Counted from the first letter of the stretch, positions 1,727-14,052 are shown. The stretch: 24,000 bases of DNA from an uncultured Bacillaceae bacterium (GCA_963838465.1 CAWIQZ010000017.1:646611-670610), one strand, 5' to 3'. Translations and numbers: made by a program. The notes: a model not told the origin generated them from the letters alone.

Positions 1727-2782
1727 ATGGATTTTAGAATTAATTTTTTGTCATTTTTTGTTGTTCAAGTTGAGGGGCAAGGAGAGCAAGCTGATAAACG
1801 TTTTAATCATTATCAAACAATAGATGAACAATTGTACATAAACAGTGCCCTTAAAGACTTTCTTGATGGTGAATTAATGAAAGTTGTAAAACGAAAAGTA
1901 GAAAGAAATCCTAAATCAGAACAAGTGCCCACAAAAATCGGCCGTTTTATTGTAGAGCCTGGGTATGAGTTAGAAACGAATCCTAACTATAATCTTTTTA
2001 ACCGTATAAGAACAGCTGCTGATGCAGCTAGTTTTAGAAAAAGCAGTGAAGAGCTTGTCCGAGCATATATGGACACGAGTGCAATTCGGGGAGGAGCCCT
2101 TCTCGTGATCAGGGCACAATTTACAAAATATATGGATGATCCCTTTGTCTTTGTCTTAAAATGTGATTTTGAGCAGAAGGTAGCGTCGATTACCGATGAA
2201 AAAACAATGATCAGAAATGTGGAAAGAGCAATCACAACGAAGAACATGAAATCGATTCAATATCCCTACATGCCAGAAGAAGGCATGGTCGAAGAGTGGG
2301 AACTGAAAATCCACCAATCCTCTCATGCACGCTACTTTGAAGACTTCTTAAAATTTGTCGAGTACCATCAATCAATGCCTGAAATCGTCAAAACGCAAGT
2401 CATTCAAATGGCCCAGCAACACATCGCAGAAACATATCAAGAGGAAACGCCAGAACGAATCCAAGAGGAAGAATACATCGAAGCTTGGTCAAACACACCT
2501 GTGCGTGAACTCCAAGAAAAGTGGACGCCAGAGCAAGTCGTAGAAGCCTCTGCACCGATTGTTGAGCATCAGCCAGAACTACCACTCAAGCTCAAACTCG
2601 ATCATATAGACGTAAAGGCATTGCTTTCTGATTTTGGTGAATCGGTTCATATTGCAAAAGTGAACGGGAAGTATGTGATTGTGATTGAAGGGGATTCATT
2701 TACGTTTGAAAAAGGCGTTTCACCAGTGGAGTTTTTGAAGCCTGAGCCTCTTGAGGAAGTGTTGAAGAGGGTGGGGAGGTAA
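1727..2782 (+). CDS. Conserved hypothetical protein of 351 aa (possibly DUF3900 or distantly NdpA-like; function not established). Integration target of the islands.
   Basis: Long ORF with an AAGGGG Shine-Dalgarno 7 nt upstream of the ATG. Its 3' part is repeated twice downstream. The substitutions between copies are mainly synonymous, which shows it is a real, selected coding sequence. Confidence 0.85.
   Translation: MDFRINFLSFFVVQVEGQGEQADKRFNHYQTIDEQLYINSALKDFLDGELMKVVKRKVERNPKSEQVPTKIGRFIVEPGYELETNPNYNLFNRIRTAADAASFRKSSEELVRAYMDTSAIRGGALLVIRAQFTKYMDDPFVFVLKCDFEQKVASITDEKTMIRNVERAITTKNMKSIQYPYMPEEGMVEEWELKIHQSSHARYFEDFLKFVEYHQSMPEIVKTQVIQMAQQHIAETYQEETPERIQEEEYIEAWSNTPVRELQEKWTPEQVVEASAPIVEHQPELPLKLKLDHIDVKALLSDFGESVHIAKVNGKYVIVIEGDSFTFEKGVSPVEFLKPEPLEEVLKRVGR
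2261..2782 (+). repeat. Copy A of the triplicated 3' end of the 351-aa gene (attL-side homology block)
   Basis: Collinear with 11142-11663 at a constant offset of 8881 with no indels and 28 mismatches in 522 bp. The last 90 bp also match 14091-14180. Confidence 0.9.
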
Positions 2783-2891
2783 TAAAGTAGTACAATTTAT
2801 CGGAATTCTAACTAGATTGTGACCAATAGTGTGACCATGATTTAAACCCTCAATGCCTGTAACACAAGGTTTCCTTTAAATGAATGTGACT

Positions 2892-2919
2892 AACACCTGT
2901 TTATTTGCAGGTGTTTTTT
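2892..2919 (+). terminator. Rho-independent terminator serving the reconstituted 351-aa gene
   Basis: AACACCTG (2892-2899) ... CAGGTGTT followed by a T-run (2914-2919). Confidence 0.6.
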
Positions 2920-3143
2920 CTTATGAATTTTAATAGAAAGGGAATGTCGTTATCCGATTAAGAAAAGTCTTTTTTGTACGGCTGTTTTGAATATTGATGT
3001 TTACATATGGTATCGGGTGATTTGAAAGCATTTTTACTTTGTTAAAATACCTATCAATATTTGTCTTTATCTTCTAATGATAGGACAAAAGTTATATACT
3101 TAACCTATAGAAAGTATGAAAATGGTAAAATTCACAGGAAGAG

Positions 3144-5063
3144 GTGTACTCTGTTTTGAGGAATAAGTCAAAACCGGTTGGTTATCTACTAGCTTTCTTA
3201 TTAGGAGGTCTAGGTGTACATGCATTTTATTACAGAAGATATGTAAGAGGAATTGTATATCTCATTCTATGTTGGACTTATATTCCTATTATTTTGGGAT
3301 GGATTGATATGTTATTTATAAATAAATGGCATAAGCAACTCCAAGAAAGTGGTTCAATTGTGAACAGCGAACCGAAGACGGTAAAAAAACTAAAGCCAAA
3401 GCTTGTATCGGAAGTGAAAAAAGAAAAGAAGCTTGAACAAGTAGTAGACAAGAAGACAGTTGATTCTAAACTGAGTTCGTTGAAGAAGAAACATGTACTT
3501 TATGAGGAAGATGAAATCATACTCACAAAATACAGTCACATTCAAACACCGAAAGAGATTTTGGAAAGTATTGAAGAAATTAAGAATCCTAAAAAGCGTA
3601 CTAATTCGGTAGGTGGGATATCCATTGAAGTCAACTTTTCTCACTCAAATACTGATTTTGTAAAGGATTCAATACGTTATTCTAAAGTGCGAGAGAAAGA
3701 GAGTCCTGAAATTCCATTACAAGCGTACTGGACAACATTTGGTAACTTAAATGACAAACAAAAAAAGTGGTACTTTTACTGGAGAGAACAAGTGTTGAAT
3801 GGCGAGTACCCTGATGTGGACTTAAGTTACATTATCTTATTTATATACGAGTTGATGAATTATTCCTTTAACCAAAAAGCTTCTTTCAATATTAGTATGA
3901 TGGTACGTTTGCATGAGGAGTACAATGGGAGGATACCGAAATTAAGCAATTACTCCACACGTTGGATTGCAGATATGCTCTATGAAGTAAAAGAACAAGA
4001 ATTAGCTCAAGAGTGGGCAGATGAGAGAAATCATATCCCACCACTATATCAGCAATTACAGGATAAAGAAGATAACTTAGCTAAAATCTCGATTACTTCT
4101 TGGAAGCCATATATCCGTAACCATAGAGAAACTGAATATTTTAAGGTCAATAAAAACAAAATTTATAAGGTATTTAAAGAGAGTCTACCTTTGCTCCAAG
4201 AAGTCTATGAGAAAGAAAATAAAAAGTTGCTACAATATTGGTTCAAAATTAACAAGGAGCGTGTCATTCGACATTTGTTTGCTTCTGCGGTTGTAGGACG
4301 AAGCCATGATGGTGTTCATGTGTATGTGGAACGCATCAAACCTACAGATGACCTATCCAAAGAGGTTACGGCATTATTTAAGCTATCTGAAAACGTAACA
4401 CGCCAACTAAATGGAGAAAAGCGTGAGATTAAAGTAAACGAAGAATTTCTGCCGGAAGGATTTAAAGAAATGATGATGGAGCATTTTTCTAATGAGAGAA
4501 ATAGACGATTTAAAGTCGTCCAAAAATCAGAAGAAATAGAACAAGGTGGAGAAATACCACCACCTCCAGAGAAGAAACCGGAAGTAGAAACAAAGCCTAA
4601 AATTGAGTTTAACAAAAGCAATATTGGGAAACTACAAACAGATACTGACAGGTTGATTGAAACGATTAATTCTAGAAGTGAAGCGGAAGAGCACGAGGTT
4701 AAAGAACAACTCAAAGATAAAGAAAAGGAAGAAGTTCGCACGAATCCACCAGAACAAAAAACGCCACTTACAACGGAAACAGATGTCCTATCAGCTTTAG
4801 GTGGAGGGGCAGAGTTTGAAGGGGAAGTAGAATTCCTCGAAATATTAACGGATATTGAAAAGGGATTTTTAAACCAATTCGAAAACGGTAAATATAACCA
4901 AGAATCAGCCAATTTGTTTATTAAGCAAAAAGGACTCATGTTAGGTATGTTTATAAGTGAGTTAAATGAAAAGGCGAACGAATATATTGGGGACAACCTT
5001 CTTGAAAGTCAAGGGGACGATATTGTCGTGTATGAAGAATACGAACATGTATTTCTGAAATAA
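3144..5063 (+). CDS. TM2-domain membrane anchor fused to a TerB-N and TerB-C domain protein (SngA-like)
   Basis: N-terminus KPVGYLLAFLLGGLGVHAFYYRRYVRGIVYLILCWTYIPIILGWIDMLFI has two TM helices in a TM2-like pattern. Residues ~190-400 (YWTTFGNLNDKQKKWYFYWREQVL..DLSYIILFIYELMN) look like TerB-N. The C-terminus (IEFNKSNIGKLQTDTDRLIETI ... LTDIEKGFL...ISELNEKANEYIGDNLLE) looks like TerB-C, interrupted by K/E/P-rich low complexity. The start is uncertain: GTG 3144 or TTG 3156. Confidence 0.75.
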   Translation: MYSVLRNKSKPVGYLLAFLLGGLGVHAFYYRRYVRGIVYLILCWTYIPIILGWIDMLFINKWHKQLQESGSIVNSEPKTVKKLKPKLVSEVKKEKKLEQVVDKKTVDSKLSSLKKKHVLYEEDEIILTKYSHIQTPKEILESIEEIKNPKKRTNSVGGISIEVNFSHSNTDFVKDSIRYSKVREKESPEIPLQAYWTTFGNLNDKQKKWYFYWREQVLNGEYPDVDLSYIILFIYELMNYSFNQKASFNISMMVRLHEEYNGRIPKLSNYSTRWIADMLYEVKEQELAQEWADERNHIPPLYQQLQDKEDNLAKISITSWKPYIRNHRETEYFKVNKNKIYKVFKESLPLLQEVYEKENKKLLQYWFKINKERVIRHLFASAVVGRSHDGVHVYVERIKPTDDLSKEVTALFKLSENVTRQLNGEKREIKVNEEFLPEGFKEMMMEHFSNERNRRFKVVQKSEEIEQGGEIPPPPEKKPEVETKPKIEFNKSNIGKLQTDTDRLIETINSRSEAEEHEVKEQLKDKEKEEVRTNPPEQKTPLTTETDVLSALGGGAEFEGEVEFLEILTDIEKGFLNQFENGKYNQESANLFIKQKGLMLGMFISELNEKANEYIGDNLLESQGDDIVVYEEYEHVFLK

Positions 5064-5076
5064 AGGAGTTACACGT

Positions 5077-6393
5077 ATGAATATTAAGAAAAGAGACTCT
5101 TCCGCTGTATTAAATTCTCTATCTGGTGGAGTTGTTCCGAGTCGAGGATTGCAGTATATTATGGTCGGTAGAGCTGAAGAAGCTAAGCAAATCCTCAGCG
5201 ATTTGGATAATATTAAAAAGGGCTCATCATTTATTAAATTGTTCATTGGACCTTTCGGTAGTGGGAAAAGTTTCATCCAAGCCCTTATTCAGCAAATTGC
5301 TTTTAATGAAAAGTTTGTTGTAGCAAAAGCAGACTTCACACCAGAACGTAGATTATATGGTAGTGAAGGCAAGGCTGTAGCTATTTACACAGAAATGATG
5401 AAAAATTTATCTACAAATACTGTACCAGATGGCGGGGCGTTGTCGACCATATTAGATAAGTGGATTGGTGATGTTCAAATGAAAGTAGTGAAAGAGAGGG
5501 AATACACATCTGTAGAATTCGATAACCCAAATTTCGTTAAAGATGTGGAACATGAAATTACTAGTACGGTTTCTAAAATGGATGAATTGGTAGGTGGTTA
5601 TGACTTTGCACGAATCTTAACTCTTTATTTTAAAGGTTTCGTGGAAGATAACAGTGACTTACAAAGGTGTGCATTAAGATGGCTTAGAGGGGAATACAAT
5701 ACTAAAACTGAAGCTCGTACGGACTTAGGTGTTAGGGATATCATCAATGATAGTAATTATTATGAGTTTATTAAAGTCTTATCACAGTTCGTTAAACAAA
5801 TTGGATACTCTGGTCTTGTTATCAACTTTGATGAAGCAATTAATTTATATAAAATTACTCATCCTCAAACTAGAGATAAGAACTATGAAACCATTTTAAA
5901 GATATATAATGATACGCTGCAAGGAAATGTAGAGGGACTGTATATCACGATCGGAGGAACTCCTGAGTTCCTCCAGGATGAAAGACGAGGGTTATTTAGC
6001 TACGGTGCTCTGAAAAGAAGACTTCAATCCAATCGTTTTGAAACAACTGAATTTCGCGATTTATCACAACCTGTTATTACTTTAACACCTTTAAAACACG
6101 ATGAAACTTTTGTTTTGTTACAGAAAATAAGGGATATCCATGCTGTTCATTACGGTTATGAGAGTATGGTCAATGATGATGAAATCATGAGTTTTATTCA
6201 AGAAGAATATGCTAGACCGGGTGCAGAGGAGAATTTAACAGTTGGTGAAGTTATCCGTAATTTTATTGGTGCATTAAATATTCTTCATCAAAATCCCAAT
6301 TACGAGCGTTCCAATCTATTTGGTGAGAAAAATAGTGAAGAAAAAGCATCAGAATCGAATATCAACTCTCGTTTTTCTCGAACGGAAGGGTAG
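5077..6393 (+). CDS. P-loop ATPase of the DUF2791 / BrxD-like type (SngB-like)
   Basis: Begins 13 nt after the upstream stop. Walker A is GPFGSGKS (5248-5271) and a Walker B-like motif is LVINFDEA. The N-terminal SGGVVPSRGLQYIMVGR motif resembles DUF2791-family ATPases as I recall them. Confidence 0.75.
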   Translation: MNIKKRDSSAVLNSLSGGVVPSRGLQYIMVGRAEEAKQILSDLDNIKKGSSFIKLFIGPFGSGKSFIQALIQQIAFNEKFVVAKADFTPERRLYGSEGKAVAIYTEMMKNLSTNTVPDGGALSTILDKWIGDVQMKVVKEREYTSVEFDNPNFVKDVEHEITSTVSKMDELVGGYDFARILTLYFKGFVEDNSDLQRCALRWLRGEYNTKTEARTDLGVRDIINDSNYYEFIKVLSQFVKQIGYSGLVINFDEAINLYKITHPQTRDKNYETILKIYNDTLQGNVEGLYITIGGTPEFLQDERRGLFSYGALKRRLQSNRFETTEFRDLSQPVITLTPLKHDETFVLLQKIRDIHAVHYGYESMVNDDEIMSFIQEEYARPGAEENLTVGEVIRNFIGALNILHQNPNYERSNLFGEKNSEEKASESNINSRFSRTEG

Positions 6394-6401
6394 GTAATGT
6401 T

Positions 6402-8420
6402 ATGACTTCATTTCAATTACTCTCGAAAACAATGCAAAAGAAAATTTGGGATATGAACTGGGATAAACTTACTTCCATTCAAAATAAAACGATTCCAGTC
6501 ATCATTGAAACAACTAAAGATGTGATTGTATCCTCAGGAACTGCTTCTGGTAAAACGGAAGCAGCTTTTTTGCCAATCATTTCATGCATAGAAGAAAACG
6601 CAGAAGAGCAGTTGAAAGTGTTATATATCTCTCCGTTAAAAGCGTTGATTAATAACCAATTTGAGCGGATTGAAAGACTGTGTGAGAATAGCGGTATTTC
6701 CATACATAAATGGCATGGTGATGTAAGTCAAAGTCAAAAAAATAAGTTTGTGAAGAAACCATCTGGGATACTTCAAATTACCCCAGAATCGGTAGAGAGT
6801 TTATTTATTAACAGAACAGAACATATCAAGCATTTATTCAAAGGGGTTGAATTTGTTGTAATTGATGAAATCCATTCCTTTATCAATACCGAAAGAGGGG
6901 TACAATTACGTTCTCTTTTATCTAGGATTGAACATTATACAGATGAAAGAGCCAGAATAGTTGGATTATCAGCTACAATTGATAACTTTGAGCTGGTGAA
7001 AAAATGGGTAAATTATCGTGATACAGAAAATGTGGAAATTATTGAAGCTAAGGGAAGTGACAAAGACCTTTTATACTATTTGATGCATTTTCAAACAGGA
7101 GATGACCGAAAAAAACCGGTTGAGCTGTATGAGGATATTCGAGAATTAACGAGAAATCAAAAAGCTATCATCTTTTGTAATAGTCGAGGAGAAGTAGAAG
7201 AAGTGACGGTGTTTTTAAATCGATTAGCTGAAAGCGATAACATAGGAGAAACATATTATGCCCATCATTCGTCAATTGATAAGAAAGAACGAGAATATGT
7301 AGAAAAGACAATGATGGAATCAAAGATGTCCAAAAGTGTTGTGGCAACTAGTTCTTTAGAGCTTGGAATAGACATTGGTGATGTTGATATTGTTGTCCAA
7401 GTAGATAACACTTTCACAGTGTCCTCGTTGAAGCAGCGGCTAGGGCGGTCAGGAAGAAAAAGAAATGCAAACCAAATGCTGCAACTATATTCAACGGATG
7501 AAGATAGTTTAGTTCAATCCATAGCCGTAATGGAACTTATATTAGAAAAGTGGATAGAACCAGCTGAGGGATATCCAATTCCATATGACATACTATTTCA
7601 TCAAATCATTTCGATTTGTCAAGAAACAAACGGAATTACGAAAGAACAATTGGTCAAAAAAATAAAAGTAAATCATATATTTTTCTCATTGGAAAACGAA
7701 CGAGTTTTAGAATTGATAGAACATATGATTGAACTGGACCATTTAGAAAAAATAAAGGGTAAAAATGAATTAATTGTTGGAATTGAAGGAGAACGAATAC
7801 TAAGAAGCCGGGATTTCTATGCAGTCTTCACGATACCAGAAGAGTTTACCGTGTTAGAAGGTGTACGGAAAATTGGGACGTTAGATAAAACGTCTATGTT
7901 AAATGTTGGGGATAACATTATTCTTGCTGGTAAACTGTGGACGGTGAGAGACATAGATTTTCACAAAAATAAGGTATATGTTCAAAAAACCGTTAACGGA
8001 AAGCCTCCCAGATATGCTGGTGGCGGTATAAAGATTCATAAACGAATCGTTGAAAAAATGATGGAACTCCTGTGTTCCGATCAAGCTATAAGTTATATTG
8101 ATGAAAAAGCTACACAGACATTAAATGATGAGCGAAAGCCCTACCAACACTATGAGGTGAAACCGAATGAACGAGTGTTTTGGGTTAAAGAGGGAGAAAT
8201 CATCTTTGAAACATACACTAGTACAATCGTTGCTCGTAATTTAGTATGGGCATTCCGTGCGTTAGGATTACCTATAAAGTCAGTTGATGGGGTAGGAAGA
8301 ATTACTATTGAAGGTTATTTCGGTGACATAGAAAACGTAATAGAGGAAATGAAAAACAGAGAATGGACTTCTAAGGTATTGTTGGAAAATACAAAGGACG
8401 CAAGAATTTTTCTCTACTAA
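6402..8420 (+). CDS. DEAD/DEAH-box superfamily 2 helicase, Lhr-like (SngC-like). The C-terminus is probably truncated by a frameshift.
   Basis: Motif I GTASGKTE, motif II DEIH, SAT, motif VI QRLGRSGR. Begins 8 nt after the ATPase stop. The +1 frame stays open from 8353 to 8538. Confidence 0.85.
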   Translation: MTSFQLLSKTMQKKIWDMNWDKLTSIQNKTIPVIIETTKDVIVSSGTASGKTEAAFLPIISCIEENAEEQLKVLYISPLKALINNQFERIERLCENSGISIHKWHGDVSQSQKNKFVKKPSGILQITPESVESLFINRTEHIKHLFKGVEFVVIDEIHSFINTERGVQLRSLLSRIEHYTDERARIVGLSATIDNFELVKKWVNYRDTENVEIIEAKGSDKDLLYYLMHFQTGDDRKKPVELYEDIRELTRNQKAIIFCNSRGEVEEVTVFLNRLAESDNIGETYYAHHSSIDKKEREYVEKTMMESKMSKSVVATSSLELGIDIGDVDIVVQVDNTFTVSSLKQRLGRSGRKRNANQMLQLYSTDEDSLVQSIAVMELILEKWIEPAEGYPIPYDILFHQIISICQETNGITKEQLVKKIKVNHIFFSLENERVLELIEHMIELDHLEKIKGKNELIVGIEGERILRSRDFYAVFTIPEEFTVLEGVRKIGTLDKTSMLNVGDNIILAGKLWTVRDIDFHKNKVYVQKTVNGKPPRYAGGGIKIHKRIVEKMMELLCSDQAISYIDEKATQTLNDERKPYQHYEVKPNERVFWVKEGEIIFETYTSTIVARNLVWAFRALGLPIKSVDGVGRITIEGYFGDIENVIEEMKNREWTSKVLLENTKDARIFLY

Positions 8421-8640
8421 ATTTTCTCCGTATTTACCAGAAAGGTTACAAGAGGAGATACACATTGCTAGCGAGATTAATATTCAAGCAATGAAAGAAT
8501 ATCTAATTTCTCATTTATTTAGAATTATAAAATTGTAAAGGTGAGAAAGAACTGACACCTATACCTTACTTAATCAAGAGTTAACCTTGTCTGAATTGGC
8601 TTGGTTAAATAATGTTGTATTGCAACGTTTGAGATAATAA

Positions 8641-8672
8641 TTGTAAGCCCGCAGTCTAAAGTGGGCTTACAA
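8641..8672 (+). terminator. Hairpin terminator downstream of the three-gene operon
   Basis: TTGTAAGCCC (8641-8650) pairs with GGGCTTACAA (8663-8672) in a 10-bp stem. The downstream tract is T-rich but interrupted. Confidence 0.5.
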
Positions 8673-8762
8673 CTTTAGATTTATTATTTTCTATATTTTT
8701 CAAAAAGTAACCTTAAGTTATGATACAATATACTTGTAAAAAATTCATGAGGAGGTTATTTC

Positions 8763-9779
8763 TTGAAGATTATAGCTTTTATTGTAAGTTTAATATTAGT
8801 AACCTTTATTTATGTACAACCTGTAAATGCTGAACCTATTTTTAGAGACATTGAAGAAGATCATTGGGCTTTTGATGAAGTTAATGATCTCGTTAAAAAA
8901 GGGATAGTTAGTGGCTATGAAGATGGAACTTTTAAACCTAACGCAACACTCACTCGTGCTCAAATGGCAGTAATGTTATCTATTGCATTAGATTTGGAGT
9001 TGAAAAACCGTCCGAATCCTAATTTTACTGATGTGTATTCCAATTTCTGGGCTTACAATTCGATAGCCGCAGTCGCAGAAGAAGGAATTATTACAGGTAA
9101 TGATGGTAGATTTCATCCAAGTGAAAACTTGACAAGAGCACAGATGGCAGTAGTATTAAGAAGAGCTTTTGACTTAATTGGAACTACCGAACATAGATTC
9201 AGAGATATTTCACAGAATTTTTGGGCTTACGAGGATATTCAATCTCTTGCAGCAAATGGTATCACAACAGGATATGAGGATAATACTTTCAGACCCAATG
9301 TTCCAGTAACAAGAATACAATTTGTGGCATTTTTAGCACGTTCCCTTAAATTATACGAAGAAGAAAATCCTGTCACAGAAGAACCTGAAGAAAACGAAGA
9401 GATTGAAGTGGAATTTGAATTTTCAGAACTAAATACTCATTATGTATCTCCAGATAATAATATGACTGTCACAATGAAAAATATAGAAGTGATTGATAAT
9501 CAAGGAATTTATGAATACAGAATTACTTATATAGAACAGAACAATACGATTGATAAGGTTATTGATCAAGGAGCTTTTAAAGTTTTCTATGTAAATGGTG
9601 AATCAGAACCTCAATACGGATTTTTTAATAGACTTTTTCCAACAGAATCCGAAACAAGAACCTATACTTTTAAAGCATTAAAATATCAAGAGCCTTATTT
9701 AGTTGAATATGGAAGTGATTTGTTTTTTAATAATGAACCAAAAAATGAATCATTGAAATGGAAAATAGAACTACCGTAA
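8763..9779 (+). CDS. Secreted protein with three S-layer homology (SLH) repeats and an uncharacterised C-terminal domain
   Basis: TTG start after a GAGGAGG Shine-Dalgarno. Signal peptide MKIIAFIVSLILVTFIYVQPVNA. Three SLH repeats (F.D...HWA...V..L...GI..GYEDGTF.PN..LTRAQMAV). Residues ~200-338 have no motif I recognise. Confidence 0.9.
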   Translation: MKIIAFIVSLILVTFIYVQPVNAEPIFRDIEEDHWAFDEVNDLVKKGIVSGYEDGTFKPNATLTRAQMAVMLSIALDLELKNRPNPNFTDVYSNFWAYNSIAAVAEEGIITGNDGRFHPSENLTRAQMAVVLRRAFDLIGTTEHRFRDISQNFWAYEDIQSLAANGITTGYEDNTFRPNVPVTRIQFVAFLARSLKLYEEENPVTEEPEENEEIEVEFEFSELNTHYVSPDNNMTVTMKNIEVIDNQGIYEYRITYIEQNNTIDKVIDQGAFKVFYVNGESEPQYGFFNRLFPTESETRTYTFKALKYQEPYLVEYGSDLFFNNEPKNESLKWKIELP

Positions 9780-9799
9780 AAATTAATATACATTATTTA

Positions 9800-9833
9800 G
9801 ACATACCTTTCAAAATAAAGGGTATGTCTTTTT
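9800..9833 (+). terminator. Rho-independent terminator downstream of the SLH gene
   Basis: AGACATACC (9800-9808) / GGTATGTCT (9821-9829) followed by TTTT. Confidence 0.65.
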
Positions 9834-9942
9834 CATTACTAAGACATCTCGAATCATTATGCTCTTTTTCTAAAACAAATGGTATAATCTTACTATAGGG
9901 ATTAATTATTTACTGGGAAAAGGTCTTTAGGAGGCTCTTTTC

Positions 9943-11073
9943 ATGAAAGGAAGTATAACTAAAAATAAAAAAACTGGTAAATGGGATTTTGTTTTTAGTA
10001 TAGGTCGTGATCCTTTAACTAGTAAATGGAAACAAATTAGAAGAAGAGGATTTGAAACAAAACGTCAAGCTGCAGAAACGATGACCAAGTTACAAGCAGA
10101 GGTATTAGAGGATGAGTTTATTGATTTAGCTAGTCTGACTTACGGTAGTTATATGGAACAATGGTTTGAAGAAAGAAAAAATCATCTTCAGAAATCTACC
10201 TTTGAAACTCAGTACATTTACTTCAAAAACCATATTAAGCCTAGACTTGGACATTTCAGAATCCAAGAGATAAACCCATTGCATATTCAAAAGTTTATTA
10301 ATGATTTGGTTCGGGAGAATGATTATTCTGAGCATACTATTCATTTAGTTTACCGAATTGTTAGTGCTTCATTTAAAAAAGCAAAAATCATAAAATTGGT
10401 CAAAGACAATCCTGCACTTGGCGTTACTCTACCAAAGATTAGAAAAAAAGAAATGAAACTATGGTCATTAGAAGAAGTTAATCATTTTATTTCTGAAGCA
10501 AAAAAAGTCAAGCGTATAACTCGATGTCACATTGGTTTTCTAATTACAATTTTAACGGGAATACGTCAAGGAGAAGTTCTTGCTCTTCGTTGGAAAGATA
10601 TTGATTTGGATAAGCAAATAATTTACATTCGACAGACGTTAACTCAAGCTGCAAGAATTAAAAATGGCGCAAAGAATGACAGTAGTATTCGCTCTATCCA
10701 TATTTCGGATAGCTTGATCACTGAATTGAAGACACATAGAAAACGGATTTTAGAAGAAAAACTCCAACATGGACAGGCATACGATGATTTCGATTTAGTT
10801 ATCTGTACAAGAACAGGTAAGCCGATAATTCCAAGAAATTTTAGAAAAGAGTTCTATAATTTATCTGAGAAAATTAATATGCCTAAAATTCGCTTTCATG
10901 ATCTTCGACACACGCATGCAACAATCTTAATTCAGCAGAATGTGAATGTAAAGTTAATCTCTGAACGGTTAGGTCATTCTGAAATTGGAACAACACTTGA
11001 CACGTATAGTCATGTCTTACCAAACATGCAGAAGATTGTATCAGACGAATTAAATAAAATCATTAGATTATGA
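9943..11073 (+). CDS. int: Tyrosine-type site-specific recombinase (phage integrase family)
   Basis: N-terminal arm-binding-like segment KTGKWDFVFSIGRDPLTSKWKQIRRRGF. Catalytic signature GIRQGEVLALRW ... FHDLRHTHATIL ... LGHSEIGTTLDTYSHV (R..HxxR..Y). Confidence 0.95.
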   Translation: MKGSITKNKKTGKWDFVFSIGRDPLTSKWKQIRRRGFETKRQAAETMTKLQAEVLEDEFIDLASLTYGSYMEQWFEERKNHLQKSTFETQYIYFKNHIKPRLGHFRIQEINPLHIQKFINDLVRENDYSEHTIHLVYRIVSASFKKAKIIKLVKDNPALGVTLPKIRKKEMKLWSLEEVNHFISEAKKVKRITRCHIGFLITILTGIRQGEVLALRWKDIDLDKQIIYIRQTLTQAARIKNGAKNDSSIRSIHISDSLITELKTHRKRILEEKLQHGQAYDDFDLVICTRTGKPIIPRNFRKEFYNLSEKINMPKIRFHDLRHTHATILIQQNVNVKLISERLGHSEIGTTLDTYSHVLPNMQKIVSDELNKIIRL

Positions 11074-11141
11074 CCTACTTTTGTGACCAATAGAGTTAAT
11101 GGAACTGAAAAGTATTGATATTAAAGGATTTTCAAGCAGTT

Positions 11142-11663
11142 TATCCCTACATGCCAGAAAAAGGCATGGTCGAAGAGTGGGAACTGAAAATCCACCAATC
11201 CTCCCATGCAAGATACTTTGAGGATTTCTTGAAATTTGTCGAGTATCACCAATCGATGCCTGAAATCGTCAAAACGCAAGTCATTCAAATGGCCCAGCAA
11301 CACATCGCAGAAACATATCAAGAGGAAACGCCAGAACGAATCCAAGAGGAAGAATACATCGAAGCTTGGTCAAACACACCCGTGCGTGAACTCCAAGAAA
11401 AGTGGACACCAGAGCAAGTCGTAGAAGCCTCTGCACCGATTGTCGAACATCAGCCAGAACTACCACTCAAGCTCAAACTCGATCATATAGACGTAAAGGC
11501 ATTGCTTTCTGATTTTGGTGAATCTGTTCATATTGCCAAAGTGAACGGAAAGTATGTGATCATTATTGAGGGTGATTCATTTACGTTTGAGAAGGGCGTT
11601 TCACCAGTGGAGTTTTTGAAGCCTGCGCCACTTGAGGAAGTGTTGAAGAGGGTAGGGAGGTAG
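11142..11663 (+). pseudogene. Copy B: displaced 3' fragment (173 codons) of the 351-aa gene, junction between islands 1 and 2
   Basis: 94.6% identical to 2261-2782 with no indels and only 3 amino-acid differences. Homology stops abruptly at 11142. The track ORF 11115..11663 uses a fortuitous TTG. Confidence 0.85.
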
Positions 11664-11726
11664 GGGAAAGTAACCATTCAAATGTGTGTTATTACATGGT
11701 ATTTAGCTTAAATTTTTCCCCTTCAA

Positions 11727-11757
11727 GGCACTGATCAATTTGGTCGGTGTCTTTTTT
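11727..11757 (+). terminator. Rho-independent terminator downstream of copy B
   Basis: GGCACTGATC (11727-11736) pairs with GGTCGGTGTC (11742-11751) using G-U wobbles, followed by TTTTTT. Confidence 0.5.
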
Positions 11758-11815
11758 ATTAACTAAGTCGCAAATGTGCGAAAACAAAATAATCTAACAA
11801 AGGGGAAATGTAAAA

Positions 11816-12538
11816 ATGAACGAGCAACAAACTGTATTACCAAGCTACAAGCAAGTAAAGGATGAGCTAGTACCAATTCCAAACTTTGATAAGTATTATG
11901 CATGCCATCAAAAATTAGGGAAGATTTTTAATAAGCAAAGTGGGAAATGGTTGCTTGTTGACGCTAAAGGTGTTGGAGATAAAAGGTATTTATTAACTAA
12001 ATTAAAAAGTAACGATGGTGAATGGATTCCAGTATATGAGTATGAAGCTATTTTTGCATCTTATTGGGGCCAGTGGAAAACTTGGAGAAATTTCGGTCGA
12101 AAAATGGAAATTGAACATAAGGATCGGAATCCTAAAAATAATAATATCTAAAATCTAAAGCTTGTTGATAGAGTTAGTCAATATACAGACGATGTAATCA
12201 AAGATATGTCAAATAAATCTCGGCTTGATGCTGAACAAGTGGTGATTATTAAAACTGATATTGCTGTTTGGGGAGATGGTAAGATTAAGTTTCATCAAAA
12301 ATGGGCAGATGAGTTGAACTGTTGTAAAAGGACAATCCAAAATATCATACTAGGTAATTCGTGGAAAAATGTTGAACCAACTGTAAGATTAATACATACA
12401 TAACAATAGTCACAGTGTAGTTTAAATTTGAGTGAATACATTAAGCAAGCTGCTAAGTCTTATGGACATGGCTATAGGAATATGTGGAACATTATAAACG
12501 GAAAGTCAAGGAAGCATCTACATAACCAAACCAATTAA
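11816..12538 (+). pseudogene. NUMOD4/HNH homing-endonuclease-like gene inactivated by three in-frame stop codons
   Basis: Track ORFs 11816..12151 and 12206..12403 and a further segment 12428..12538 are all in one frame. They are interrupted only by TAA 12149, TAA 12401 and TAG 12407. The HNH-like motif EIEHKDRNPKNNNI*NLKLV spans the first stop. Two HTH-like repeats follow: KRTIQNIILGNSWKNV and YRNMWNIINGKSRKHL. Confidence 0.75.
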
Positions 12539-12658
12539 AATGATGATTTTAACTATTTCAAATTATAATCTACTAAATTAAATTTCCAAAAAATGATTAA
12601 ATTCCCCTTTGCTAGAGTATAATGTTAATAAGACTTTAGACTTTAAGCGTGATGGTTA

Positions 12659-13093
12659 ATGTCAACAGAGACAACATATGACACTTTGGACTTAAGTGAT
12701 CTAAATAAAGAGTTATACAAAGTTGGAAAACTAACTATTAATATCATAGATTTGCTAAATTTAAGTAGTGAAGAGAAAGATATTATAGTATGGAGAGATA
12801 GATTAAATTATATTGCTAAGCATAAAAATGATTTTGAAACAGAAGAACAATTTTATAAACATATTGAAGCAATCCCTGAAATTATTCAAAATCCTGACTA
12901 TGTAGGATTACATCCAAATGGAAAGAGTCTAGAATTTATAAAAAGAATAGATGAAAACATGCTAGTTGCAGTTAGACTAAGTGATAAAAAGAAACTTGCA
13001 TTTCGTACTTCTTATCCGATAAAACAGAGCAAACTCAACAACTATATTGCTGCGGGAAGGGTTAAATGTGTAAACCCTTCTTTACAAGCATGA
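12659..13093 (+). CDS. Small protein resembling stand-alone PBECR (Barnase-EndoU-ColicinE5/D-RelE-like) nuclease-fold proteins; putative RNase/toxin
   Basis: 144-aa ORF. The pattern IVWRDRLNYIAKHKNDF...YKHIEAIPEIIQNPDYVGLHPNGKSLEFIKRIDENMLVAVRL...LAFRTSYPI matches my memory of PBECR-type proteins on Firmicutes mobile elements. Not verified. Confidence 0.5.
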   Translation: MSTETTYDTLDLSDLNKELYKVGKLTINIIDLLNLSSEEKDIIVWRDRLNYIAKHKNDFETEEQFYKHIEAIPEIIQNPDYVGLHPNGKSLEFIKRIDENMLVAVRLSDKKKLAFRTSYPIKQSKLNNYIAAGRVKCVNPSLQA

Positions 13094-13109
13094 ATCAACA
13101 TGGTATATT
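13081..13109 (+). promoter_or_regulatory. Sigma-A-like promoter with extended -10, overlapping the 3' end of the upstream CDS
   Basis: -35 TTTACA (13081-13086), 17-bp spacer, TGgTATATT (13101-13109). Confidence 0.45.
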
Positions 13110-13115
13110 GATCAT

Positions 13116-13261
13116 ACACTATAGAAATAAGTTATTTGAGGACGGAACAGGCAGCCGTCACGCCCTTTCAGGGTCTTATAAGAGATGTAGGATACGCCAC
13201 CCTACCAAGTAACTTATTAACGTTTAAAGACCTCCTCATTCATTTGAGTGAGGTCTTTTTC
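13116..13261 (+). ncRNA. Candidate structured small RNA (about 145 nt): 9-bp closing stem, three internal hairpins and its own terminator
   Basis: P1 13126-13134/13210-13218 (AATAAGTTA/TAACTTATT). H1 GACGG/CCGTC 13141-45/13155-59. H2 GCCC/GGGT 13162-65/13171-74. H3 GTAGG/CCTAC 13187-91/13201-05. Terminator 13227-13261. No ORF fits. The family is not recognised. Confidence 0.4.
13227..13261 (+). terminator. Rho-independent terminator
   Basis: AAGACCTC (13227-13234) pairs with GAGGTCTT (13250-13257). An inner CTC/GAG helix follows across a 1-nt bulge. Then TTTTT. Confidence 0.7.
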
Positions 13262-13417
13262 TCTAAGATTAAAGGGTTTTTATAATAATACTGTTCAGGT
13301 ATTATTATAAAATTAAGTAGAAAGTGTGGCGATCAAATGGTTAGTATACCGTTAAGCCAAAAGAAGAAACGTTTAACCATATCATTAGATGAACCCACTC
13401 CCCGTTAACCTTTAGTG

Positions 13418-13446
13418 TTGTCTTTGTCAACAAAAATTGGTATAAT
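13418..13446 (+). promoter_or_regulatory. Sigma-A-like promoter for the small-ORF/MazF-like pair
   Basis: -35 TTGTCT (13418-13423), 17-bp spacer, extended -10 TGgTATAAT (13438-13446). Confidence 0.5.
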
Positions 13447-13524
13447 TTCCTTATAGACAACCATATACTAATACCACTTTTACTAACGGGCGGTGAGTAT
13501 ATGTGTAAAGAGGAGGAGAAAGAT

Positions 13525-13680
13525 ATGGAAAAAACTATGGAAAGAAAAGATTATAAAAAACTAAATCTTAACCATGAAAAAATAAACAGTATCTCAGTTA
13601 CTCCTAAAGTTAAAGATGGGAAATTACTTTTCAACGAGAACAATAAAGATCATCGCTACATTGTTGAAGATGATCTTTAA
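13525..13680 (+). CDS. 51-aa ORF absent from the ORF track; candidate antitoxin partner of the downstream MazF-like toxin
   Basis: ATG 13525 preceded by AGAGGAGGAG (13510-13519). Reads MEKTMERKDYKKLNLNHEKINSISVTPKVKDGKLLFNENNKDHRYIVEDDL. Stops 15 nt before the toxin ATG. Too short for the ORF track. Confidence 0.5.
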   Translation: MEKTMERKDYKKLNLNHEKINSISVTPKVKDGKLLFNENNKDHRYIVEDDL

Positions 13681-13695
13681 AAAGTTCAAAATTTC

Positions 13696-14052
13696 ATGCA
13701 AATAGGTGACATCTTCTATTTTGATGTAGCATATACTGATGACCCATCTAAATCAAGCAATAGACCAGTATTAATTATCGATGAACTAGAAGATGATATG
13801 TTATTACTAATCTCAACAACTACAAAAGGAAGAAAATATCCAATTAGTGGTTATGACCGCTATAAGATTCCGATTCAAAATTGGAGAAAAACAGGTTTGG
13901 ATAGACCTTCTTGGTGTCGTGGGAAGATATTGATCAGGCTTCATAAGGATGAAATTGACTCGCTAGTTAAGATAAGTGATTATATAGGTAGGATGCATCC
14001 AGAAGATTTTAACATAATTATAGAAGAGTTAGAAAAGATTCATAGCAATTAA
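13696..14052 (+). CDS. PemK/MazF-like toxin (putative endoribonuclease)
   Basis: 118 aa. GDIFYFDV...SNRPVLII...MLLLISTTTK follows the PemK/MazF layout (GdI..vdf ... RPvlvl ... v.v.piTs). No Shine-Dalgarno of its own, which suggests coupling to the upstream small ORF. Confidence 0.6.
   Translation: MQIGDIFYFDVAYTDDPSKSSNRPVLIIDELEDDMLLLISTTTKGRKYPISGYDRYKIPIQNWRKTGLDRPSWCRGKILIRLHKDEIDSLVKISDYIGRMHPEDFNIIIEELEKIHSN

Follow-up and report, generated by a model that had tools for sequence, protein, structure and literature searches.

A probable Shango anti-phage operon with a TM2-fused SngA on a tyrosine-integrase island of an uncultured Bacillaceae bacterium

The anti-phage system Shango is encoded by the genes sngA, sngB and sngC, and phage protection has been demonstrated only for the systems of Escherichia coli and Pseudomonas aeruginosa (10.1101/2022.05.11.491447; PMC10250203). 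In a published phylogeny, its helicase SngC falls into one defence-helicase clade together with BrxHI, DruE and DpdJ (PMC12278908). A search of the literature for the mechanism of Shango retrieved no mechanistic paper. The combination of a TerB-N/TerB-C protein with an ATPase and a helicase is said to have been predicted earlier to form a membrane-linked DNA-processing complex. Here, we analysed a stretch of 24,000 nucleotides (nt), referred to as the window, from an uncultured Bacillaceae bacterium (GCA_963838465.1 CAWIQZ010000017.1:646611-670610), in which a first-pass annotation made from the sequence had proposed a Shango-like operon at positions 3144-8538. With a probability of roughly 85%, we read this operon as a Shango (SngA-SngB-SngC) anti-phage operon of the form prevailing in Bacillota, which is the main cargo of a tyrosine-integrase island and whose mechanism can be outlined by inference. 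The operon is an already known system that is recognised by standard tools, and its protective function against phages is predicted by homology to Shango.

The three genes are co-directional on the plus strand, with sngA at 3144-5063 (639 amino acids, aa), sngB at 5077-6393 (438 aa) and the open frame of sngC at 6402-8420 (672 aa). The intergenic gaps amount to 13 nt between sngA and sngB and 8 nt between sngB and sngC, and a hairpin with a 12-bp stem downstream of sngC (8641-8672, plus strand) is the likely operon terminator, so that the layout described in the first-pass annotation is borne out by the coordinates. A second terminator-like hairpin, with a T run behind it (2892-2915, plus strand), lies between the upstream DUF3900 gene and sngA. 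Among the PADLOC models, the top match of gene 1 is SngA (PDLC03958; 2.7e-54), with aa 115-635 aligned to model positions 50-521 of 528, that of gene 2 is SngB (PDLC03959; 5e-174, 577 bits) and that of gene 3 is SngC (PDLC03960; 5.2e-208, 691 bits). The Pfam matches agree with this, namely TM2 (PF05154, aa 7-56, 4.6e-12), TerB_N (PF13208, aa 166-310, 2.1e-25) and TerB_C (PF15615, aa 483-634, 7.1e-15) in gene 1, BrxC_BrxD (PF10923, formerly DUF2791, 7.9e-153) in gene 2, and DEAD, Helicase_C and WH_Lhr in gene 3. Chance matches would not give E-values of anywhere near this size. The assignment to Shango was made because SngA, SngB and SngC are the best PADLOC models for the three genes and because the same gene order recurs in related loci.

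These related loci (n = 80) were collected by an alignment-based scan with one genome per species; when the single SngA protein was used as the query in the scan of genome contigs, no match was obtained. The order sngA-sngB-sngC was found in 73 of the 80 loci, in many Bacillota as well as in other phyla. Six of the remaining seven loci end at a contig edge (L019, L026, L034, L036, L048 and L055), and in the seventh, L059, the contig is short and metagenomic, and neither SngB nor SngC was matched. The conserved synteny and the three PADLOC matches together uphold the Shango-like triad that had been proposed at the outset. Compared with the nearest locus, the identity is 62% for SngA, 88% for SngB and 78% for SngC, and much of the SngA divergence lies in the linkers. 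Among 1.84 billion cluster representatives, 90 relatives of SngA were found at E ≤ 1e-30, a number that rises to 2875 when the threshold is relaxed to E ≤ 1e-3. The sngABC genes also occur on megaplasmids of Bacillus cereus and Bacillus thuringiensis (SngB 84% identity) and on Klebsiella pKPN3. SngB-like ATPases are present in 690 plasmid records, with no match in 50,697 phage records. In three loci from Anaerolineaceae, Syntrophobacteraceae and a deltaproteobacterial metagenome-assembled genome (L058, L065 and L080), the SngA open reading frames (ORFs) reach about 1230-1250 aa and carry an N-terminal extension of about 650 aa, without a Pfam match, before TerB_N/TerB_C.

The model scores also bear on the idea that the ATPase and the helicase are a BREX type 2-like fragment (BrxD plus BrxHI), or a housekeeping Lhr-type repair module, placed beside a TerB-family stress protein by chance. 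SngB does match BrxD (5.4e-53, 179 bits), SngC does match BrxHI (1.1e-137, 458 bits), and SngC is additionally matched in part by models for ligase-associated DEXH and for Lhr helicases. However, the Shango models score far above the BREX models in PADLOC, the NCBIfam model BREX_BrxD reaches only 179 bits where its cut-off demands 350, and scores below the cut-off were likewise obtained with TIGR04121 (254 bits, cut-off 850), PRK13767 (233 bits, cut-off 849) and PRK09751 (123 bits, cut-off 1496). Furthermore, the island contains no PglX, PglZ or BrxC-type gene, and a chance neighbourhood is at odds with the TerB_N/TerB_C gene preceding the ATPase and helicase genes in 73 of 80 loci. We regard this explanation as extremely improbable, and the BREX-fragment, repair-module and tellurite-resistance readings were all rejected on model scores and gene content.

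SngA is composed of a TM2 hairpin, a lysine-rich linker, a TerB_N core, a motif-containing linker, a long helix, an acidic spacer and TerB_C, as deduced from PADLOC, Pfam, homolog alignment and an AlphaFold2 (AF2) model with a mean predicted local distance difference test (pLDDT) of 77. The TM2 domain (aa 7-56; 3162-3311, plus strand) scores 46.4 bits against a Pfam gathering threshold of 27.9, and Pfam, the AF2 model, conservation and charge all point to a two-helix membrane hairpin. In the model, aa 10-70 form a confident helical hairpin, with helices at aa 10-29 and 33-70 (pLDDT ~90), followed by a disordered lysine-rich tether at aa 71-116; the linker region aa 60-117 contains 17 K/R residues. 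The N-terminal tail and the loop each have a net charge of +3, and the post-membrane segment has one of +10. Since the flanks together carry +13 compared with +3 in the loop, both termini of SngA are likely to be cytoplasmic according to the positive-inside rule.

Behind the tether, the AF2 model shows a confidently folded core (aa 118-455) in which TerB_N (aa 166-310; 3639-4073, plus strand) is joined by a helical and beta-hairpin extension. The strings YWTTFGNL (aa 195-202), KKWYFYWR (aa 207-214) and LSYIILFIYELMN (aa 227-239) lie within this domain, and W209, Y210, W213, R214, D226-Y229, Y235-L237 and N239 are invariant in the homolog alignment. The core is followed by a disordered segment (aa 455-488, pLDDT <50), which harbours the linear motif RFKxVQ ... 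IPxPP (aa 455-475; 4506-4568, plus strand). In this motif, R455, F456, V459 and P472 are invariant across 34 homologs, which makes it a candidate docking peptide for a partner. A long helix (aa 491-524) and the acidic disordered spacer come next. The TerB_C domain (aa 483-634; 4590-5045, plus strand) is delineated by Pfam and AF2 secondary structure. The C-terminal unit (aa 560-639) has the order H-H-E-H-H-E-E in the model, so that the last ~80 aa resemble a winged helix; the Foldseek matches of this unit to LysR/MarR winged helices are weak and non-significant (probability 0.4-0.7, E>1). Neither sequence nor profile search retrieved a relative of SngA from the PDB. Among TM2-type SngA homologs, the mean identity is highest in the hairpin (65%), followed by the core (54%), TerB_C (51%) and the linkers (21-25%). 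The TM2 segment, TerB-N core and TerB-C tail named in the first-pass annotation were thus all recovered by Pfam, with the lysine-rich linker and the quoted strings in place. Regarding the start site, TTG at 3156 fits the homolog N-termini (M-x-x-KSK) better than GTG at 3144 and is also better served by the GAGGTG Shine-Dalgarno sequence at 3141-3146. The start region is also covered in part by a 16-codon ORF (3116-3166, ATG at 3116), which is read in a frame other than that of sngA.

TerB proper (PF05099) gave no match at E ≤ 1 either in the middle region of the window SngA or in nine diverse homologs. Since the PADLOC SngA model matches this PF05099-less protein end to end, we treat the missing domain as a subtype difference and not as an exclusion from Shango. 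As a proxy for proteobacterial Shango, Klebsiella pKPN3 was used in place of the tested proteins of E. coli and P. aeruginosa PA14. The Klebsiella SngA has the architecture TerB_N-TerB-TerB_C (PF05099 at 2e-7) and no TM2, whereas the window SngA has TM2 and no PF05099. The question raised in the first-pass annotation, whether the TM2 fusion is a distinct architectural variant, can therefore be answered in the affirmative in comparison with the Klebsiella protein, but not in the sense of a rarity, as the fusion is the prevailing form in Bacillota.

The frequency of the fusion was evident from the database, where TM2, TerB_N and TerB_C are precomputed together in about 100 of the best 120 relatives of SngA, under record names such as 'TerB N-terminal domain-containing protein', 'TM2 domain-containing membrane protein YozV' and 'NINE protein'. 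A hidden Markov model (HMM) of the 68 N-terminal columns of the SngA alignment matched solely at the start of sngA, in about 35-39 of the 80 species-level loci. In a neighbour-joining tree of SngB, the window belongs to a large Bacillota clade in which TM2 is the rule, yet at least four sublineages of this clade lack it. Two of these sublineages (L024 and L050) retain TM2 remnants interrupted by stop codons, and in three others (L021, L030 and L049) SngA begins with FFKKLF, a segment usually found directly behind the hairpin. Unrelated N-terminal hydrophobic or transmembrane helices were found on SngA in 11 other loci, while SngA of Paenibacillus and Desulfosporosinus has no N-terminal hydrophobic helix. 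Because TM2 was lost repeatedly and unrelated helices occur elsewhere, the membrane anchor recurs on SngA as an accessory that can be exchanged or dispensed with, TM2 being its commonest version in Bacillota. A literature search for TM2 together with TerB or Shango found no paper; the widespread, membrane-anchored and TerB-less Bacillota subtype is not discussed in the literature searched.

Two further observations concern the fusion. In four loci from gut Clostridia (L054, L055, L056 and L061), SngA is about 25% identical to that of the window and has two extra hydrophobic helices before TM2. In the SngB tree, these loci are embedded among forms anchored by something other than TM2, which points to the TM2 fusion having been acquired a second time or being of ancient origin. 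In Sporosarcina limicola (L011, 9974-11905), an intact TM2 hairpin is encoded upstream of the annotated start of the protein P0092, whose first residue is the conserved Met in an IDMFF motif, equivalent to aa 55 of the window SngA. Either the annotated start was mis-called, or it hints at an internal start that could give an anchor-less isoform.

SngB is a BrxD-like P-loop ATPase according to PADLOC, Pfam and its motifs (5077-6393, plus strand). The Walker A motif GPFGSGKS occupies aa 58-65 (5248-5271), with K64 as its lysine, and the Walker B motif LVINFDEA occupies aa 247-254 (5815-5838), both as quoted in the first-pass annotation, where a DUF2791-type ATPase had been recognised. No relative of SngB was found in the PDB by sequence or profile search. 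Confidence in its model is low (pLDDT 64), and the weak, non-significant fold matches to RdrA, the NLR ZAR1 and archaeal ORC/Cdc6 hint at an oligomerising switch ATPase. SngC is an Lhr/BrxHI-type superfamily 2 (SF2) helicase by PADLOC and Pfam, with homologous coding extending to 8538 (6402-8538, plus strand). All the helicase motifs noted previously are present: motif I GTASGKTE (aa 46-53, 6537-6560), DEIH (aa 155-158, 6864-6875), SAT (aa 190-192, 6969-6977) and motif VI QRLGRSGR (aa 345-352, 7434-7457). The nearest solved relative is Mycobacterium smegmatis Lhr (5v9x/7lhl), which is the best PDB sequence match (3.5e-31). No nuclease domain was found in SngA, SngB or SngC among the Pfam or PADLOC models.

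In the mechanism we propose, the TM2 hairpin would keep SngA on the cytoplasmic side of the membrane with both ends inward, and the flexible lysine-rich tether would present the TerB_N core, the RFKxVQ..IPxPP peptide and the winged-helix-like TerB_C. SngA would serve as a scaffold, possibly as a sensor, and recruit SngB and SngC, the former being BrxD-like and probably an ORC/STAND-like switch ATPase, and the latter a putative Lhr/BrxHI-type 3'-5' DNA translocase/helicase. Upon infection, the SngB-SngC pair would work on phage DNA or on RNA:DNA intermediates near the membrane and thereby stop replication. Because no nuclease domain was detected in the three proteins, the block may proceed via ATP-driven unwinding or remodelling, or via DNA being passed to host nucleases. 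The anchor would set the location, and probably the sensitivity, of the system rather than act as a killing device, since it was repeatedly lost or swapped while sngABC was kept. Of direct interference and suicide, the former fits better.

A suicidal mode has nevertheless to be weighed. In an abortive-infection variant, SngB and SngC would sense phage DNA, upon which SngA would oligomerise and permeabilise the membrane with the TM2 hairpin as the effector. The hairpin being the most conserved segment of SngA, the lack of a recognisable nuclease domain in the three proteins, and the pairing of TerB proteins with membrane or pore-forming components in Bunzi and Dionysus all speak for it. On the other hand, TM2 was lost at least four times with sngABC retained, unrelated transmembrane helices substitute for it elsewhere, and the Klebsiella Shango, the stand-in for the tested proteobacterial systems, has neither TM2 nor another Pfam membrane domain. 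This makes a membrane-permeabilising SngA quite improbable in our view. Alternatively, the TM2-anchored, TerB-less SngA may represent a mechanistically distinct Shango subtype, in which the hairpin would be a sequence-specific sensor or oligomerisation element that gates SngB and SngC via the RFKxVQ..IPxPP peptide and detects, e.g., the phage DNA-injection machinery or a membrane perturbation. The conservation of TM2 is compatible with such a sensor, but its repeated loss speaks against an essential role, and we consider this proposal tentative and rather unlikely. The preferred reading remains a Shango operon acting by direct interference, with the hairpin as an accessory anchor.

The end of the operon deserves separate consideration. 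The position 8538 given in the first-pass annotation agrees with the conserved C-terminus of SngC, but not with the open frame: the sngC frame ends with ...NTKDARIFLY at the stop codon 8418-8420, whereas the +1 frame continues with ...QEFFSTKFSPYLPERLQEEIHIASEINIQAMKEYLISHLFRIIKL to a stop codon at 8536-8538. Position 8538 can be reached only via a +1 frameshift, and the intact ORF therefore ends at 8420. As a consequence of the frameshift, ARIFLY and a stop stand in place of the 45 conserved residues at the C-terminus. Because homologs of 710-712 aa continue with ...T(T/K)DQEFFFSKFS.YLP... where the window SngC diverges, an extra base near 8400 is held responsible, i.e., a 1-nt insertion GGAC-G-CAAG at the approximate site 8400 (plus strand), located by frame translations and homolog comparison. 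After removal of this base, a SngC of 711 aa is obtained, residues 1-711 of which align in one piece with the 710-712-aa homologs. A frameshift within the T5 run at 8407-8411 was also considered and was dropped, as the homolog comparison placed it at ~8400. A second lesion concerns the A3 run at 5058-5060 (plus strand), in which one A is apparently missing according to frame analysis and a second assembly. Adding an A here yields a SngA of 645 aa ending with ...KIKELHV, with its stop codon overlapping the sngB start (ATGA); the -1 deletion thus probably costs six residues. Both lesions, as well as the absence of TerB proper, had been overlooked in the first-pass annotation.

The second assembly is a 6.4-kb Logan contig of run ERR11593883, which encodes an identical SngB and a SngA of 645 aa with a 4-nt overlap with sngB. 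Its helicase is broken into two pieces of 447 and 228 aa that together span 2135 nt, with the region 1 nt short and broken at a place other than in the window. The two assemblies thus disagree at both indel sites, with ERR11593883 adding a lesion of its own, which is a pattern as from sequencing errors. These data have to be set against the explanation that the operon is a decaying, non-functional Shango remnant in which the sngA and sngC indels are real mutations. The +1 insertion near 8400 does lie outside a homopolymer, the lost 45 residues are conserved across homologs (SK[FY]S.YLP...H.A.EI[DN]I...EYL...FR), the public record carries the truncated 672-aa SngC, and the near-identical contig ERR11593883 also has a split helicase, although in a different place. 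However, the ORFs are full length apart from the two indels and have intact catalytic motifs, SngB and SngC are 88% and 78% identical to their nearest homologs with no further lesions, and the sngA lesion lies in an A-run. In addition, ERR11593883 has an intact SngA (645 aa) and a helicase region that is 1 nt short and not 1 nt long. Decay of the operon is accordingly a possibility to be taken seriously, albeit a doubtful one.

Several points weigh against an active Shango system that works as proposed above. Provided that the extra base does not stem from an assembly error, a helicase without its conserved C-terminal 45 residues may impair this copy, and in combination with the probable 6-aa truncation of SngA the copy may be inactive. 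The literature describes Shango by its TerB domain, whereas the window SngA is without TerB proper. BLASTP gave no significant alignment between the window and Klebsiella SngA, the SngB proteins of the two being ~39% identical. As the window SngA has no TerB and cannot be aligned to the Klebsiella SngA by BLASTP, it is chiefly through SngB and SngC, together with a profile-level similarity of SngA, that function can be transferred from Proteobacteria. The high conservation of TM2 (65%, compared with 54% for the core) suggests a sequence-specific role beyond passive anchoring. Finally, we infer all the mechanistic steps, and both the SngB model (pLDDT 64) and its fold-search matches, all of them non-significant, are to be read in this light.

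The operon resides on an island of ~8.9 kb (about 2783-11139), which contains only sngABC, an SLH-repeat gene and an integrase gene. The integrase-bearing island that had been noted earlier is thereby substantiated by a tyrosine integrase (9943-11073, plus strand; Pfam Phage_integrase, Phage_int_SAM_3 and Arm-DNA-bind_4) and a flanking direct repeat of 524 bp. The left repeat copy (2259-2782, plus strand) is the 3' part of a DUF3900/DUF3898 gene (1727-2782) and marks the attL side, while the right copy (11140-11663, plus strand), immediately after the integrase gene, is a displaced 3' fragment of this gene and marks the attR side, both being defined by alignment and Pfam. In an alignment of 2150-2900 against 11050-11800, the copies are ~95% identical from TATCCCTACATGCC to the stop codon, and Pfam detects DUF3900 and DUF3898 both in 1727-2782 and in the fragment, which is called as an ORF at 11115-11663. 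This is the pattern of an element that targets the DUF3900/DUF3898 gene, re-supplies its 3' end and leaves a displaced fragment. Both copies are too similar to Halalkalibacter orthologs to tell the host-derived from the element-derived one.

Since the DUF3900 protein of the window is 87-88% identical to its orthologs in Halalkalibacter species, the host is likely to be a Halalkalibacter-like alkaliphilic member of the Bacillaceae. The nearest relatives of the Shango operon are found in Cytobacillus, Bhargavaea, Sporosarcina and Siminovitchia, which is consistent with its horizontal acquisition. Neither an integrase of the window type nor a DUF3900/DUF3898 target adjoins Shango in any of the 80 related loci. 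The remaining cargo gene (8763-9779, plus strand) encodes a secreted protein with three SLH repeats (Pfam SLH, 9.9e-44) and an uncharacterised C-terminal half, for which PADLOC gave no match. This protein could be surface-related cargo, e.g., altering phage adsorption. Just beyond the island, the region 11816-14052 includes an ORF of 111 aa whose tail weakly matches HNH_3, a gene (12659-13093, 1.7e-23) for a PBECR3/PBECR2 Barnase-EndoU-RelE-like nuclease and another (13696-14052, 5.6e-05) for a PemK/MazF-like toxin. With these mobile-element- or toxin-like fragments, the insertion site may be a recurrent landing spot.

Combined, these results describe a Bacillota form of Shango that is built unlike the Klebsiella Shango used as the proteobacterial proxy, with a membrane hairpin present and the TerB domain absent. 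Unrelated N-terminal membrane anchors recur in SngA, one disordered linker of which contains a short invariant peptide. The anchor, the motif and the localisation provide concrete experimental handles on a widespread system. For annotation, the label of Shango as a 'TerB-domain' system needs qualification.

The closest described systems are the Shango operons of E. coli and P. aeruginosa PA14 (10.1101/2022.05.11.491447; PMC10250203), which share with the window operon a TerB_N/TerB_C protein, a BrxD-like ATPase and an Lhr/BrxHI-like helicase in the same order, and which are likewise located on mobile DNA. SngB and SngC are also homologous to BrxD and BrxHI of BREX type 2 (Pgl-like) systems. 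In contrast to BREX type 2, the island of the window is without a methyltransferase, PglZ, PglW or BrxC, and the third partner is a TerB_N/TerB_C protein. SngC has the RecA1-RecA2-winged-helix layout in common with the Lhr core of M. smegmatis Lhr (5v9x/7lhl). However, Lhr is a stand-alone repair enzyme, whereas SngC always occurs with SngA and SngB and has a conserved C-terminal tail of its own.

With respect to the membrane, Bunzi and Dionysus combine a Ter-family protein with transmembrane elements, as does the window SngA, and 'membrane surveillance' has been proposed for these two systems. They differ in possessing TerB proper together with lipid-binding or pore-forming partners and no ATPase-helicase pair, while the window SngA has only TerB_N and TerB_C. 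The hairpin itself corresponds to TM2 proteins of the YozV/NINE type (PF05154), with the same two helices and the GxxGxHxFY and W-x-D signatures. In YozV/NINE-type proteins, TM2 forms a stand-alone small protein, whereas in the window it is an N-terminal module on a cytoplasmic protein of ~640 aa.

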